Positions 28,736 to 42,305 of a stretch of DNA of 64,000 nt are shown piece after piece. The stretch's first letter is position 1. Each line of letters begins with the position of its first letter. The stretch is from a virus. The notes beneath the pieces were generated by a model. That model worked only from the letters and a program-made list of their open reading frames with translations. It was not told where the DNA came from and made no database searches. The stretch lies in the IMG/VR virus record IMGVR_UViG_3300010392_000634; one strand, 5' to 3'. A program made the translations under genes and the position numbers.

Positions 28736-30013
28736 ATGCTTGAGTGGCTGACAACTTATTATACAGACTTTATCGCATTCAGTAAATCAAATCCTTTATT
28801 TGCCGGTATTATAAGTGTTTGGGGATTAGGAGTTGTAACATTCTGTTTACGGACTGTTCCGAGTAAAATTTTTAATTTCATTTACAGACAGTGTACTACC
28901 AACTTAGTTCTTAATAGTTACGATAGTATCTATCATGAGTTCTTACAATGGGTGTCTGAAAACAATATGCACTCATTTGTGCGTGACCTTAACTTCAATA
29001 ATAGAGGCGTGTGGAGTGAAGGTGTTCCAATGATTAGCATAGGATATGGGAAAACGATTTTCCTATTCAAGAGACGACTCTTCGTTCTTCATAGATTCAA
29101 AGAAGAAGCTAATCAGACAATGAGACCGAAAGAAACAATCAAGATTACTTTGATTGGTAGGTCGCATCAAATTTTTAGTGAGCTATTCGATGTTATACAT
29201 GAAAGTCAGGAAGAAGAAAACTCAATCAGCGTCCATACTTGGAAAGAGGGATGGAATTACACTGCTTATCAACCAAAGCGTGATTTAGATACTGTAGTTG
29301 TAGAAGAACATATTAAACAAGATATTCTCACCTGTATTGATAATTTCATTGGTGATTCTGATTGGTATTTTAAAAATGGAATACCATATCATCTTGGGAT
29401 TATGTTTCATGGACCAAGTGGAACAGGTAAGACGAGCTTAATCAAAGCTATCTGTGCTAAATATGACCGTCCATTATATATTATTCATCTTTCTAGAATG
29501 AGCGATGATACTCTTGAAACAGCTTTGGCTGAGATTCCTATCGGTGCTGTGGTTGCAATCGAAGATATTGACACCGCTAACTTAGGTAAAAGAAATATCA
29601 GTAATAAAATTACGACAATTAAACAAAGTGGTACAATGTCTCTTGTTCGAGGAACGAGCCATGGAGACTCTGAGGCTTCTTTGACACTCGGTGGTGTATT
29701 AAATGCTCTTGATGGAATTACTACATCAGAAGGTAGAATTTTAATTGCTACCACTAATGTTTTAGACTCGCTTGATGAGGCGTTAATTCGCCCCGGAAGA
29801 TTTGATTTGACAAAAGAAATAGGTTATATGACAGACGATACTCTACGTACGTACTTGGGAAGATTTTATCCGTATGATTTTTCCAAATGGTGTGTTAATG
29901 ACAATGTTAAACCTTGTGATGTTCAGAAGTTAGTTTTTGATAACCGTAACTCGCCTGACAATGTACTTGCAGCAGTGGCACATAGGTGTGATAATGGAGG
30001 ACTTGAAGATTGA
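28736..30013 (+). CDS. AAA+ ATPase, BCS1-like
   Basis: N-terminal TM helix; Walker A GPSGTGKTS; Walker B VVAIEDID. Confidence 0.7.
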   Translation: MLEWLTTYYTDFIAFSKSNPLFAGIISVWGLGVVTFCLRTVPSKIFNFIYRQCTTNLVLNSYDSIYHEFLQWVSENNMHSFVRDLNFNNRGVWSEGVPMISIGYGKTIFLFKRRLFVLHRFKEEANQTMRPKETIKITLIGRSHQIFSELFDVIHESQEEENSISVHTWKEGWNYTAYQPKRDLDTVVVEEHIKQDILTCIDNFIGDSDWYFKNGIPYHLGIMFHGPSGTGKTSLIKAICAKYDRPLYIIHLSRMSDDTLETALAEIPIGAVVAIEDIDTANLGKRNISNKITTIKQSGTMSLVRGTSHGDSEASLTLGGVLNALDGITTSEGRILIATTNVLDSLDEALIRPGRFDLTKEIGYMTDDTLRTYLGRFYPYDFSKWCVNDNVKPCDVQKLVFDNRNSPDNVLAAVAHRCDNGGLED

Positions 30014-30963
30014 ATAAACATGAATTAATTGGAAAAGAGTTTAAGGTACTGAGTCATGGTAGTATTATGCTAGTTGACTATATGGGTAGTGACGAAGAGA
30101 TTGAGAATGCTGCTCGTATTTCATACGGTGAAGGTACAAGACCAGTAAGTGAGACGCGTACGTTGCTACGTTACCTCAAGAGACACTGGCACACTACACC
30201 ATTTGAGATGGCTGAGCTGAAATTTAAGATTAAGATGCCTATGGATGTAAACCGTCAGTGGATTCGACACCGTACTGCTAACGTTAATGAGTACAGTACA
30301 CGCTATTCAAATCCTATTGATGATACGGATACTACACCTGTATGGCGTAAGCAAAGCACAAACAACAAGCAGGGTAGTGACGGGAAAGTCACAGAATGGC
30401 CTGAAGGTTGTGAGTGGGAATGTGAAATAGAATGGCATGATACTCCCAGCAGTTTTTTATCTGAAATGGAACAGGAGACTATTAAAGCGTGTAAAAGTTT
30501 TTATGATATTACACAGCAATTTGGGGTTGCTAAAGAGGTGTCACGCAAACATCTACCTTTGAGCACCTATACTGAAATCTTCTGGAAGTGTGACCTGCAT
30601 AATATCATGCATTTTCTACGCTTACGTTGTGACTCACATGCACAACAGGAGATTCGTGAGTACGCTAACATTATGGCTGGTATTTGCAAAGAGTTATTCC
30701 CTTTAAGTATGGAAGCGTGGTACGATTACGCTCATATGTCTCGTAACTTCAGTCGTCAAGAGATGAAAATTTTGCAACACGTACTGGATAGAGAACAGAT
30801 TCGTAATTCTGGTGTACTAAAAACTCTGGCTCAACAGGTTGGATTGTACGACCCTAATCGAAAAAGTAACCGTGAGTACGATGAATTTGTGAAAAAATTT
30901 GCAGATAATTACTCTACTAGTATTGACTCTGAGTTTGAATTGCCTTATAATAAGGAAGACTAA
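30010..30963 (+). CDS. thyX: flavin-dependent thymidylate synthase ThyX
   Basis: ThyX motif RHRTANVNEYSTRYS (RHR ... S.R). Confidence 0.8.
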   Translation: MNKHELIGKEFKVLSHGSIMLVDYMGSDEEIENAARISYGEGTRPVSETRTLLRYLKRHWHTTPFEMAELKFKIKMPMDVNRQWIRHRTANVNEYSTRYSNPIDDTDTTPVWRKQSTNNKQGSDGKVTEWPEGCEWECEIEWHDTPSSFLSEMEQETIKACKSFYDITQQFGVAKEVSRKHLPLSTYTEIFWKCDLHNIMHFLRLRCDSHAQQEIREYANIMAGICKELFPLSMEAWYDYAHMSRNFSRQEMKILQHVLDREQIRNSGVLKTLAQQVGLYDPNRKSNREYDEFVKKFADNYSTSIDSEFELPYNKED

Positions 30964-31511
30964 TGAATCGACTTGATAGACATACAGTTTACCTAGCTGG
31001 AAGCATAGATGAGTCAAAAAATACTGCACACTTGTGGCGTGAAGAGATTACCAATTTTCTTCAACCATTAGGCATTGGCACATTTAATCCATGTGATAAG
31101 CCGTGTGGGAAGGTTGAAGACCCGGATTTTGTAGATTATTGCAACCAACTCAAAGCAGAAGAAAAATGGGATGAGTTGGTTAGTGAAATGACTGGGGTTG
31201 TTCGTGCAGATTTGCATATGGTTGACCTTTCTAACTTTATGATTGCTGCTATTGATAAGGATAGACATTTATGTGGTAGTTACAGTGAAATCACTTATGC
31301 TGCATTAGAGAAGAAGCCTGTTATTATTTGGTGCCCACAAGGTAAAGCACAAGTTCCTAACTGGTTGTGGGGTTTAGGTTTAAGGCATGAATTATTTTTC
31401 TCTACTTTAGATGAAGTTAAAGATTATATTACACATGTACACACATCAGATGTGGTAGATACGCTTGGTAGATGGCGTTTTATCAACTATAGAAAGGTCT
31501 TTGGTAAATGA
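30963..31511 (+). CDS. nucleoside 2-deoxyribosyltransferase-like protein (tentative)
   Basis: YLAGSI ... NP and FMIAAID ... EITYA ... KPVI resemble the NDT fold motifs. Confidence 0.4.
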   Translation: MNRLDRHTVYLAGSIDESKNTAHLWREEITNFLQPLGIGTFNPCDKPCGKVEDPDFVDYCNQLKAEEKWDELVSEMTGVVRADLHMVDLSNFMIAAIDKDRHLCGSYSEITYAALEKKPVIIWCPQGKAQVPNWLWGLGLRHELFFSTLDEVKDYITHVHTSDVVDTLGRWRFINYRKVFGK

Positions 31512-40925: not shown

Positions 40926-41238
40926 GAAACGTGTGGTACGTTTTGTACCAAATGAGATTGAATCAATTGTCCATGATTCCATGTTTGAGATTATTGACGC
41001 TGAATTAAACTGTCCTAAGTTTGGCGACTTGACTTTATACACTCTTGAGAATCAATCTGAAGTTGGCGGAAAATACATTTCTAATTATATTGTAGCAGCT
41101 ATTGATGTTGAGTTACCAGAACCTGTTGCTAGTTTTCGTACTATGCCTTCAGAGATGGGTACTGTCAGATGGCAGACTGTCACAGATTTACACGATTCAA
41201 TAAACAGAAAATACTTTTTATTAGTGAATAAACCATAA
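40918..41238 (+). CDS. hypothetical protein
   Basis: 106-aa ORF. Confidence 0.45.
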   Translation: MIKKRVVRFVPNEIESIVHDSMFEIIDAELNCPKFGDLTLYTLENQSEVGGKYISNYIVAAIDVELPEPVASFRTMPSEMGTVRWQTVTDLHDSINRKYFLLVNKP

Positions 41239-41246
41239 GGAATCAG

Positions 41247-42305
41247 ATGGATATCAATGTTATCGGTAGTGTTAATCAATTAGGTTATGGTTTAGTTACT
41301 ACCCATTTAGTCTCCGAGCTTATTAAAAAACACAGGGTCTCACTATTCCCTGTGAACGCTAAACCTGAATGTCACCCGAAGCACACTCAATCAATTGAAA
41401 CTGCTATACGCAATAAGTCAATGCCGAATTTTGATGCTCCTTGTATTCGCATTTGGCATCAATTTGATATGAGTTTGTTTTGTGGTGGCAAAAAAATAGG
41501 TTTCCCAATATTTGAATTGGATGAGTTCACACATCAAGAGTTACATCATCTAGGTTCTTTAGATGAGATTATCGTATGCTCAGAATGGGCAAAGCAGATT
41601 ATCATTAAGAATGGCTTGACTCAGCCTGTCCATGTAGTTCCGTTAGGCGTAGATACTGAAATATTTAAACCAGTGGAGCACCTAGAAGATAGGCCATACA
41701 GATTTTTAGCTGCTGGTAAGTGGGAGTATCGTAAAGGACACGATTTAGTCTTACAGGCTTTCAATGAGACTTTTCAGCCAGATGATGAGGTTGAATTAAT
41801 CTGTCTGTGTGACAATCCGGTTATTCCACAGGCTGATAATCTTGATTGGAATACCACTTTCAAGAATACTCGACTTGGTCATATGATTCATTTGCTGCCT
41901 AGACAACCAACACAAGAATCTGTAAATGTGGTAATGAATCGGGTTGACTGCGGAATATTTCCAGCCAGAGCTGAAGGTTGGAATCTGGAACTACTAGAGA
42001 TGATGGCATGTAATAAGCCAGTTATCACTACAAATTATTCTGGTCATACTGAATTCTGTAATGATGACAATGCATACCTTATCGATTGTGAAGATAAAGA
42101 AGTAGCGTTCGATGGCCATTTCTTTACTCAGAATGTTGGCTCTTGGATGAAATTTACAGATAATAATCTTGAACAACTTAAACAGTTCATGAAAGAGGCA
42201 TACAACAGTGGTATTAATAAAAACCCACATGGATTGCTCACAGCACAAAAATTCTCTTGGGAAAATAGTGCTAATAAATTGGTGGAGGTATTGTGTCAGC
42301 AGTAG
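41247..42305 (+). CDS. glycosyltransferase family 1 (GT-B)
   Basis: EGWNLELLEMMACNKPVITT retaining-GT motif. Confidence 0.6.
   Translation: MDINVIGSVNQLGYGLVTTHLVSELIKKHRVSLFPVNAKPECHPKHTQSIETAIRNKSMPNFDAPCIRIWHQFDMSLFCGGKKIGFPIFELDEFTHQELHHLGSLDEIIVCSEWAKQIIIKNGLTQPVHVVPLGVDTEIFKPVEHLEDRPYRFLAAGKWEYRKGHDLVLQAFNETFQPDDEVELICLCDNPVIPQADNLDWNTTFKNTRLGHMIHLLPRQPTQESVNVVMNRVDCGIFPARAEGWNLELLEMMACNKPVITTNYSGHTEFCNDDNAYLIDCEDKEVAFDGHFFTQNVGSWMKFTDNNLEQLKQFMKEAYNSGINKNPHGLLTAQKFSWENSANKLVEVLCQQ

Follow-up and report, generated by a model that had tools for sequence, protein, structure and literature searches.

The DNA considered here is a 64,000-nt window of the IMG/VR virus record IMGVR_UViG_3300010392_000634, and the region in question (28736–42305) is a run of genes for glycosyltransferases (GTs) and other enzymes. 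The region is a mosaic of three co-directional blocks rather than a single pathway. Its conserved core is read here as a phage system for building and tailoring a sugar on an acceptor other than DNA, a reading to which we assign a probability of about 0.55. The evidence that carries it is a gene pair, a family 2 GT (GT2b) and a twitch-type radical-SAM enzyme (rSAM), that occurs elsewhere as a single fused protein, and a set of sugar-handling genes that is kept together in related phage contigs. Domains were assigned by scans against Pfam, PHROG and NCBIfam (Pfam E-values are for whole proteins); the Pfam scan took in 78 open reading frames (ORFs) of the window, comprising all those of the cluster and 58 others, among them every ORF of at least 250 amino acids (aa). 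The initial annotation had named 15 domains in the region, and 14 are confirmed by Pfam, the exception being a sigma-region-4-like call discussed below. Its list had passed over two ORFs, a 135-aa methyltransferase-like one (31508–31915) and an 84-aa membrane one (34109–34363), and the slot it gave to an unknown protein holds three ORFs, one of which (33279–34100) is a fourth GT, CAP59/GT69-like (2.1e-9). The genes that matter most to the argument are the following, where L008, L170, L171 and L175 are related phage contigs.

30010–30963, + strand: ThyX, flavin-dependent thymidylate synthase, predicted to supply dTMP (Thy1 3.5e-47; PDB 6j61, a Thermus ThyX, 1.1e-53)
30963–31511, + strand: protein of the nucleoside 2-deoxyribosyltransferase (NDT) superfamily (PF15891, Nuc_deoxyri_tr2, 2.9e-8; PF05014 1e-6; both above cutoff)
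31508–31915, + strand: p135, 135 aa, with sub-threshold matches to the C-terminal part of class-I methyltransferases (Methyltransf_11 0.037, RquA 0.006)
31912–32841, + strand: GT2a, soluble GT-A enzyme of family 2 (Glycos_transf_2 3.6e-15; DDD motif at residue 87; no transmembrane segment)
32867–33292, + strand: protein of about 141 aa between two GTs (p158-like; alternative start 32816), without Pfam or PHROG match
33279–34100, + strand: CAP59/Cmt1-like (GT69-like) GT (PF11735, CAP59_mtransfer, above cutoff); kept in L008, L170, L171 and L175
35650–36495, + strand: ATP-grasp protein of the R2K clade, predicted amino-acid or peptide ligase (R2K_2 3.9e-10, R2K_3 6.1e-10; phrog_7313 7e-47)
36497–36667, + strand: 56-aa ORF overlapping the start of GT2b; a gene of 54–59 aa is called at this place in L008, L170 and L175
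36643–38019, + strand: GT2b, 458 aa (Glycos_transf_2 1.8e-9)
38016–38810, + strand: rSAM, twitch-type radical-SAM enzyme, 264 aa (Radical_SAM 5.2e-11)
38800–39462, + strand: TylF-family O-methyltransferase (TylF 2.5e-23)
41247–42305, + strand: GT4-like GT-B enzyme (Glycos_transf_1, PF00534 3.7e-16; PF13692 1.7e-15; phrog_2170 'glycosyltransferase' 2.5e-31)

The genes for GT2b and rSAM overlap by 4 nt. In four other loci GT2 and rSAM form one polypeptide: a metagenome-assembled genome of Gimesia (L090, 675 aa), an IMG/VR entry that derives from an isolate genome (L014, 597 aa), P0092 (593 aa) and P0094/L176 (587 aa). The L090 and L014 loci are closely related to each other; the GT2 domain of their fusions is 45–48% identical to the C-terminal half of GT2b, and the rSAM domain 57–58% identical to that of the window. 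The P0094 fusion adjoins a polysaccharide-lyase-like gene and another GT2. These fusions indicate that the two genes act together, and the GT2–rSAM core is shared with Planctomycetes, where it is fused. In the Gimesia loci (L090:3537–8841, L014:1784–9017 and L096:3377–7404), large conserved proteins of ∼560–730 aa, with internal repeats and no Pfam domain, precede GT2–rSAM; in the bacterial system they might serve as acceptor or as partners, and the window has no homologue of them.

The radical-SAM identity of the second partner is firm, while the SPASM part of its initial label is not: the protein has four conserved C-terminal cysteines and no SPASM match in Pfam, versus the seven-cysteine motif and two auxiliary clusters of a full SPASM domain, and so it displays the features of a twitch enzyme. 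Both the CxxxCxxC motif (C15/C19/C22) and the C-terminal set (C177/C193/C242/C245) are conserved in 26 homologues. The AlphaFold2 (AF2) model (pLDDT 92.6) finds by a wide margin its best structural match in SpeY (E 7.7e-14, TMq 0.71), and a profile search of the PDB also ranks SpeY first (7wzv, 2e-14); no NCBIfam model reaches its cutoff. SpeY is a twitch radical-SAM dehydrogenase that acts on the spectinomycin sugar, in aminoglycoside/aminocyclitol biosynthesis. With SpeY and BtrN (7wzv/7wzx, 4m7s) the window protein has in common the CxxxCxxC motif, a C-terminal auxiliary cysteine cluster and a similar size. It differs in sequence (∼20% identity) and in partnering a GT2, to which it is sometimes fused, and the likeness in fold is that of a predicted model.

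In GT2b, the Glycos_transf_2 match lies at residues 205–327, in the C-terminal half, and the N-terminal half is lineage-specific, full-length homologues being found only in related phage contigs. The AF2 model is mostly above pLDDT 90 in the C-terminal half and poor over the N-terminal ∼200 residues, which may form a second GT-A domain. Fold matches are to the two-domain polysaccharide polymerases K4CP and PmHS2, to SpsA and to TarP, so that the confidently modelled half resembles GT2 enzymes of polysaccharide and teichoic-acid synthesis; the alignment to K4CP (chondroitin polymerase) covers ∼480–550 columns but with an rmsd of 22 Å. TarP (6h4m), a prophage GT2 that re-glycosylates wall teichoic acid, is likewise a phage-borne soluble GT2 and is among the matches to the confident half. 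It is, however, a single GT of a temperate phage with a known acceptor, whereas the window has four GTs plus tailoring enzymes.

The rSAM family numbers at least 415 loci in IMG/VR and at least 134 in GTDB genomes, and because it is so large, the association with GT2b is a property of its nearest clade only. Homologues of rSAM, more distant ones included, lie in GT-rich bacterial loci (L007, L011, L172 and L176), three of which have a polysaccharide-lyase-like gene, and in the cultured 244-kb jumbo cyanophage S-SCSM2R a homologue stands among five GT genes. In marine viral contigs the family adjoins genes that, judged by the appearance of their sequences, are carbamoyltransferase-like and 2-oxoglutarate (2OG)-oxygenase-like. 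This comparative context, of GT2–rSAM fusion or adjacency in bacteria and of five GTs in the cyanophage, supports the glycan role that had been offered as one of two initial readings of the region. The S-SCSM2R locus (L177, 229579–236332) also holds an AHBA-synthase-like aminotransferase, an 'inosamine amidinotransferase' and 2OG oxygenases, an assortment that recalls aminocyclitol/aminoglycoside chemistry.

Relatives of the window were found through homologue searches and contig look-ups (L008, L171, L005, L170 and L175; the tblastn table covers four). Scans of IMG/VR with the single sequences of rSAM and GT2b returned nothing, and an alignment profile of rSAM did. A JGI metagenome contig on which the genes follow the same order encodes an identical rSAM protein; identity to the window copy is 72–86% in L008, L171, L005 and L170. 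All of the contigs that extend across the region have retained ThyX, the NDT-like gene, p135, GT2a, the p158-like gene, the GT69-like GT, R2K, GT2b and rSAM. The NDT-like gene always leads the block that runs from p135 and GT2a to the GT69-like GT; the position of p135, alongside the NDT-like gene and GT2a, is conserved in L008, L170 and L171, and the p158-like protein is 91% identical in L008 and ∼30% in L170 and L171 (tblastn). R2K always adjoins GT2b–rSAM(–TylF), upstream in the window, L008, L170, L005 and L175, and downstream of TylF in L171; the linkage has therefore outlived a rearrangement. By contrast with this core, SPFH, TylF, vWA and RyR genes are gained or lost singly, TylF being absent from L170. 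The co-occurrence of radical-SAM, methyltransferase and GT genes, which had been suggested as a check, extends to rSAM with GTs in five related contigs and in S-SCSM2R, and TylF is an optional member. Searched against the phage collection, TylF matches a single gene, mtfB of a Mycobacterium avium record.

The four GTs belong to three families (two GT2, one GT69-like and one GT4). GT2a has sub-threshold NCBIfam matches to GT2 enzymes of exopolysaccharide and other glycan synthesis, and the GT4-like enzyme, 66–70% identical in L008 and L170, has sub-threshold matches to BshA and MshA. None of the four, nor rSAM, TylF or R2K, has a membrane segment, and the cluster has no flippase, polymerase or initiating transferase; the chemistry is therefore expected to be cytoplasmic and to act on an existing acceptor. 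In the system we propose, the GTs would use nucleotide-sugar donors to glycosylate a cytoplasmic acceptor other than DNA, which could be an intermediate of a host envelope glycoconjugate, or a phage or host protein. The rSAM enzyme, physically coupled to GT2b, would oxidise or otherwise radical-modify a sugar hydroxyl on the product, TylF would O-methylate a sugar hydroxyl, and the ATP-grasp protein may ligate an amino acid. Surface remodelling, superinfection exclusion and virion decoration are candidate roles for such a product. A donor sugar could be supplied by a PseB/CapD-like NDP-sugar 4,6-dehydratase (Polysacc_synt_2, 5.5e-58), whose gene stands alone at 12047–12910, 16 kb upstream; Pfam finds no NDP-sugar isomerase, kinase or nucleotidyltransferase within 28.3–43.2 kb.

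A narrower and more tentative proposal is that R2K, GT2b, the SpeY-like rSAM and TylF form a phage-borne sugar-tailoring cassette of a kind not described before, in which rSAM acts directly on the product of its partner GT. A keto-sugar, for example, would be made and then methylated or amino-acylated, and the outcome would be an unusual glycan or an aminoglycoside-like glycoside produced during infection. If so, this would be a first function for the rSAM family, and would open a first view on accessory biology in the large phages that infect Planctomycetota. The broader reading, if true, means that large environmental phages carry radical-SAM-dependent sugar-tailoring chemistry of their own and exchange it with Planctomycetes, a phylum whose envelopes are unusual and of whose phages hardly any have been characterised. 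The GT2–rSAM fusion offers a direct biochemical handle, as one polypeptide or as two co-expressed genes, on an uncharacterised rSAM family frequently found in viromes of marine and sediment origin.

Several observations weigh against a sugar-tailoring core. The cluster encodes no acceptor and no nucleotide-sugar pathway, and, with flippase, polymerase and initiating transferase also absent, the word 'glycan' rests on context. Rhizobial members of the rSAM family stand isolated among housekeeping genes, so a GT partner is not universal in the family. Co-linearity among the relatives in part reflects common descent, not function, and the N-terminal half of GT2b is poorly modelled. By appearance the DNA GTs of RB69, DLP3 and RL38J1 are ordinary GT4-type enzymes as well (PMC13326640), which means that the GT4 gene is not assignable to a glycan by fold alone. 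Avoidance of restriction sites, taken up below, is indirect evidence on DNA chemistry, and the window is 64 kb of a genome that is probably much larger, in which hallmark genes of hypermodification could lie elsewhere.

Among known systems, the region comes closest to the GT-rich clusters that jumbo phages and cyanophages carry, and is regarded as a variant of them. Iyer et al. (2021; PMC7824862) described these as GT-rich and polymorphic, and predicted that they modify surface polysaccharide (lipopolysaccharide or capsule). As in those clusters, GTs of several families lie in a single co-directional run in a large phage, close relatives differ in gene content and O-methyltransferases are optional; the rSAM family also lies within such a cluster in S-SCSM2R. 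The window differs from them in having no sugar isomerase, kinase or nucleotidyltransferase in the cluster, and only the distant PseB-like dehydratase. It is distinguished by the GT2-coupled twitch rSAM, the R2K ATP-grasp and the NDT-led GT block; neither the GT2b–rSAM–TylF–R2K cassette nor the NDT-led GT2a/GT69-like block is described for those clusters, the function of which is itself predicted. A literature search joining jumbo phage, GT, rSAM and methyltransferase found nothing, and neither did one for 7WZV.

Three other explanations were weighed, of which the best surviving, still unlikely, is that the genes make a diffusible glycoside, aminoglycoside/aminocyclitol-like or nucleoside-like, that serves as a toxin, antimetabolite or signal in the infected cell. 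The structural kin of rSAM are enzymes of antibiotic sugars and cyclitols, SpeY first and, more distantly, BlsE and AbmM (by fold) and BtrN (by profile), and TylF belongs to the family of macrolide-sugar O-methyltransferases. The rSAM homologue of S-SCSM2R is flanked by the annotated AHBA-synthase-like and 'inosamine amidinotransferase' genes mentioned above, and in the relatives checked a gene of the NDT superfamily heads the GT2a block. Base release and GT steps occur together in peptidyl-nucleoside pathways, such as those of the blasticidin and mildiomycin clusters, which an NDT-led GT block recalls. A secondary-metabolite alternative has also been raised for the sugar clusters of cyanophages (Iyer et al. 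2021; PMC7824862). On the other hand, Pfam finds in the cluster neither a cyclitol or scaffold synthase nor an aminotransferase or an export gene, and BlsE (E 1.6e-6, TMq 0.49) is a weak fold match to the rSAM model when set against SpeY; for these two reasons a blasticidin- or mildiomycin-like pathway is given a low probability. The bacterial homologues, moreover, sit beside polysaccharide-lyase-like and multiple GT genes, as is typical of glycan loci, and four GTs of three families suggest an oligosaccharide.

It is similarly improbable that the region is no functional unit at all, only independent accessory or host-takeover genes whose shared order reflects recent common ancestry. Coding is almost wholly on the + strand and GC is uniform (∼0.38) over the 64 kb, so the co-direction and composition of the region do not set it apart; relatives differ by single gains or losses of many genes; and homologues of the NDT-like, R2K, AAA, vWA and RyR genes stand alone in unrelated phages. 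In the huge phages LR756511 and LR756500, for example, the neighbours of the NDT and R2K homologues include none of the cluster partners. Such an explanation does not account for the GT2–rSAM fusion proteins, nor for R2K still adjoining the cassette after a rearrangement, nor for the order NDT–p135–GT2a–p158-like–GT69, which is intact across relatives despite insertions between ThyX and the NDT-like gene.

The third explanation, DNA hypermodification, was the one put forward first in the initial annotation, on the strength of thymidylate-synthase paralogs found together with GTs, methyltransferase, radical-SAM and ATP-grasp enzymes, and it is the least probable. It supposes that the GTs, possibly with rSAM, the methyltransferase and the ATP-grasp protein, decorate a hydroxylated pyrimidine, with ThyX and the NDT-like protein supplying or reshaping the nucleotide pool. 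Nucleotide enzymes and GTs do share a block, and in L171 a P-loop kinase (AAA_33) lies between the NDT block and GT2a. The 5-hmdU-derived thymidine pathways of M6, ViI and PaMx11 (PMC8989533) and the 5hoC arabinosylation of RB69 and DLP3 (PMC13326640) also present a gene named for thymidylate synthase near GTs, a GT4-like GT-B enzyme, a radical-SAM enzyme and a methyltransferase; there is one known case of a radical-SAM enzyme working on DNA, M6 gp53 (PMC8989533), and the known DNA arabinosyl- and glycosyltransferases resemble the GT4 enzymes BshA and MshA (PMC13326640), to which the window GT4 has its sub-threshold matches.

The thymidylate synthase itself does not fit. The characterised phage pyrimidine hydroxymethylases and hydroxylases that serve hypermodification are all of the ThyA family (PMC8989533, PMC13326640). 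Characterised pathways draw on one of two gene sets: the first joins such an enzyme to 5-HMUDK, aGPT-Pplase and accessory enzymes (PMC8989533), and the second has a dCTPase and a nucleotide kinase together with NDP-sugar genes and GT4-like DNA glycosyltransferases (PMC13326640). The synthase of the window, by contrast, is not a ThyA-family paralog; it has the ThyX fold, aligns over the full core with the Thermus (1e-53) and Thermotoga enzymes and carries the canonical set of motifs. The catalytic motif reads RHRTANVNEYSTRY, with one deviation from RHRxxSxxxxSxRY, the first Ser being replaced by Asn; L008 (with its intein removed) and L170 retain Ser at that position. An intein with a NUMOD4 homing-endonuclease motif lies inside the catalytic motif of ThyX in L008 (677–2515; RHRTA|C...HN|SVNEYSTRY), and the Asn of the intein-free window protein falls exactly at the intein junction (RHRTANVNEY). 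Inteins usually insert in conserved sites, and the L008 intein is thus consistent with an ordinary, conserved ThyX. From its sequence, the enzyme is predicted to be an ordinary one making dTMP for replication. Its adjacency to the NDT-like gene in the window is incidental, because in L171 a 701-aa gene and rIIB lie between the two, and in L170 and L175 other small genes do so. The variable slot after ThyX is occupied in L175 by a faint Tad2-like (anti-Thoeris) gene (2829–3533), which fits such variable slots gathering anti-defence (and mobile) genes.

The NDT-like family comprises 692 representative clusters, with Y10, G13, R26, P43, D83, G105 and E109 invariant (Y10, G13, D83, G105 and E109 in an alignment of 42 homologues). 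A search of the PDB with the single sequence gave nothing, and with the profile it gave weak matches, in which NDT is the only recurring family (2a0k, 1e-3); the YxAG and CGTxxE motifs align with the NDT of T. brucei. In L175 the NDT slot holds a 186-aa gene without a Pfam match.

Other hallmarks of hypermodification were sought. Pfam finds no ThyA homologue, 5-HMUDK P-loop kinase, aGPT-Pplase, pyridoxal-phosphate (PLP) decarboxylase, dCTPase or TET/JBP domain among the 78 scanned ORFs, nor does the cluster hold any PLP enzyme or nucleotide kinase; a tblastn search with E. coli ThyA gave noise only (best E 0.69). Phage T-dioxygenases can form hmU from T post-replicatively (PMC13229309), so that having ThyX alone does not exclude hypermodification. 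The exposure of the DNA to restriction was judged from its sequence, with a striking outcome. The window contains no GATC site, against 218±14 expected, and no GCGC site, against 60.5±8 expected; seven 6-bp palindromes (CAGCTG, AAGCTT, TCCGGA, GCTAGC, GAGCTC, CCCGGG and GGTACC) are also at zero, and 4-mer palindromes are depleted as a class (mean z −4.8). None of the five related contigs that were checked has a GATC site, whereas GCGC and AAGCTT reappear in L171 and L005. The pattern points to an avoidance of restriction sites that is lineage-wide and still evolving. A purge of GATC and GCGC implies that the DNA would be cleaved if the sites were present, which argues against a general protective base modification. 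Together with the occurrence of GT2–rSAM fusions in bacterial chromosomes, within glycan loci, this makes a hypermodification island very unlikely; it keeps the small probability that it has because the site evidence is indirect and the genome is seen only in part. In more general terms, a ThyX gene beside GTs is an unreliable flag for DNA hypermodification, and the complete purging of GATC and GCGC provides a cheap counter-test from sequence alone.

The remaining features of the region and its edges are as follows.

28359–28733, + strand: 124-aa multi-pass membrane ORF, first gene of block 1, ending 2 nt before the AAA gene; no Pfam or PHROG match
28736–30013, + strand: BCS1-like AAA ATPase with an N-terminal membrane anchor (BCS1_N 1.8e-21, AAA 2.3e-15; phrog_7485 4e-109)
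34109–34363, + strand: 84-aa membrane protein, overlapping the SPFH start; window and L008 only
34360–35379, + strand: SPFH/Band-7 lipoprotein (Band_7 2.5e-6; phrog_200 'lipoprotein' 4.7e-22; N-terminus lipobox-like by eye)
35387–35404, + strand: intrinsic-terminator-like hairpin (GGCGGGG-GCAA-CCCCGCC, seven GC pairs, T-run), 8 nt past the SPFH stop, closing block 1
39471–40127, + strand: small stand-alone vWA protein (VWA 8.5e-6; intact MIDAS motif DRSGS; phrog_7371 3.5e-50)
40120–40500, + strand: RyR (R12) domain protein, PF02026, about 126 aa (RyR 5.9e-9; start as in the gene call on L001), overlapping vWA by 8 nt
40602–40925, + strand: thioredoxin-fold protein with WCAPC (Thioredoxin_2 1.5e-9), opening block 3; also present in L008, L170 and L175
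40918–41238, + strand: 106-aa protein without family match, conserved in L008 and L170
42293–42859, + strand: p188, conserved 188-aa protein, no Pfam match at E ≤ 5

Gene spacing splits the region into three tightly packed, translationally coupled blocks, at 28359–35379, at 35650–40500 and from 40602 to past 43206, and intergenic gaps are no larger than 25 nt within the first two and within 40602–43206. The terminator noted initially after the SPFH gene is indeed present as a sequence pattern; the 270-nt gap that follows that gene (35380–35649) holds a 53-aa ORF (35423–35584). Blocks 2 and 3 are separated by a 101-nt AT-rich gap (40501–40601). The description of the cluster as running in one direction without interruptions is therefore right as to direction, which is shared by nearly the whole 64 kb, and wrong as to interruptions, there being two breaks inside. 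Because co-directionality extends so far, the boundaries first given to the cluster are arbitrary, and 28736 and 42305 match no boundary of strand or composition.

The vWA, SPFH lipoprotein, BCS1-like AAA and thioredoxin genes are independent accessory genes. SPFH and its membrane partner occur in the window and L008 only, SPFH being absent from L170, L171 and L175. AAA homologues, ∼30% identical, occur in phiKZ-like and other large phages, where phrog_7485 stands alone. Homologues of vWA are present in 217 phage records, and in the two neighbourhoods checked there is no annotated RyR or AAA gene. RyR homologues are found in 291 phage records; among L008, L170, L171, L175 and the window, only the window has the gene. 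A separate vWA–RyR–AAA module, which the initial annotation had suggested, does not hold together: the three genes lie in two transcription blocks, L008 has vWA without RyR, L170 has AAA without vWA, and RyR has a published stand-alone role. An AAA/vWA pair of the MoxR–vWA type was also considered and rejected, as the AAA protein is of BCS1 type, 9.5 kb upstream in another block and not co-inherited with vWA. Gordonia phage Mareelih has a vWA gene beside two GTs and a helix-turn-helix (HTH) protein, but these neighbours have no sequence similarity to those of the window, and a module common to both was discarded. A PADLOC scan of the AAA, NDT, SPFH, R2K, vWA, RyR, GT4, thioredoxin and rSAM proteins gave only generic AAA and rSAM-core matches. 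An IS605 OrfB/TnpB element lies between the thioredoxin and GT4 genes of L175 (15377–16486).

RyDEP, a family of RyR-domain proteins of phages, overcomes Thoeris and sequesters or cleaves 2'/3'cADPR (Lopez Rivera et al. 2026 preprint, PMC13232231). Like RyDEP, the window protein is a single PF02026 domain of ∼126 aa with patchy presence, as expected of an anti-defence gene, and its H61/W64/H86/D103 have the same spacing (+3, +25, +42) as H75/W78/H100/D117, the residues by which RyDEP binds its ligand and catalyses. The likeness is one of residue spacing, and the window gene differs in overlapping vWA by 8 nt. The protein fits a RyDEP-family candidate for an anti-Thoeris sponge or glycosidase.

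The gene product at 42293–42859 (p188), first called sigma-region-4-like, finds no support as a sigma factor: Pfam does not detect a Sigma70_r4 HTH in it, and a profile of three homologues run against the PDB yields no sigma factor.

As to the phage and its host, a megablast search of the cluster against INPHARED found no near-identical relative among deposited phage genomes. A gene for a DUF1501 (sulfatase-like) protein at 21377–22585 (2.9e-70) is conserved among the related phage contigs, and wherever a cellular homologue has a name, it comes from Planctomycetota; the closest cellular homologues of GT2b and rSAM are from Gimesia. Judging from these homologies, the host is probably a member of Planctomycetota. 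The DUF1501 gene, the Gimesia homologues, the rIIB of one relative and the RNA ligase and RtcB genes suggest a large, tRNA-rich phage, T4-like or jumbo, with the cluster in its non-structural arm. The RNA ligase (23655–24719) and RtcB (25639–26763) genes, which lie upstream of the cluster, resemble an RNA-repair pair; they flank two small ORFs that have no annotation. An SNase-like ORF follows at 27294–27776, and a second, unrelated radical-SAM gene (312 aa) is found at 1887–2825.

Downstream, 26 tRNA genes and a tmRNA gene (tag AKQFAIAA) form a dense array at 47036–59860. One of the tRNAs (51328–51401) is of the amber-suppressor type, with the anticodon CTA, yet TAG is the stop codon of 19 of 79 ORFs, and there is no obvious recoding in the window. 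Beyond the array, a 765-aa protein (60287–62584) has a trypsin-like serine protease domain at its N-terminus (Trypsin_2, 4.3e-12), the rest being without annotation.

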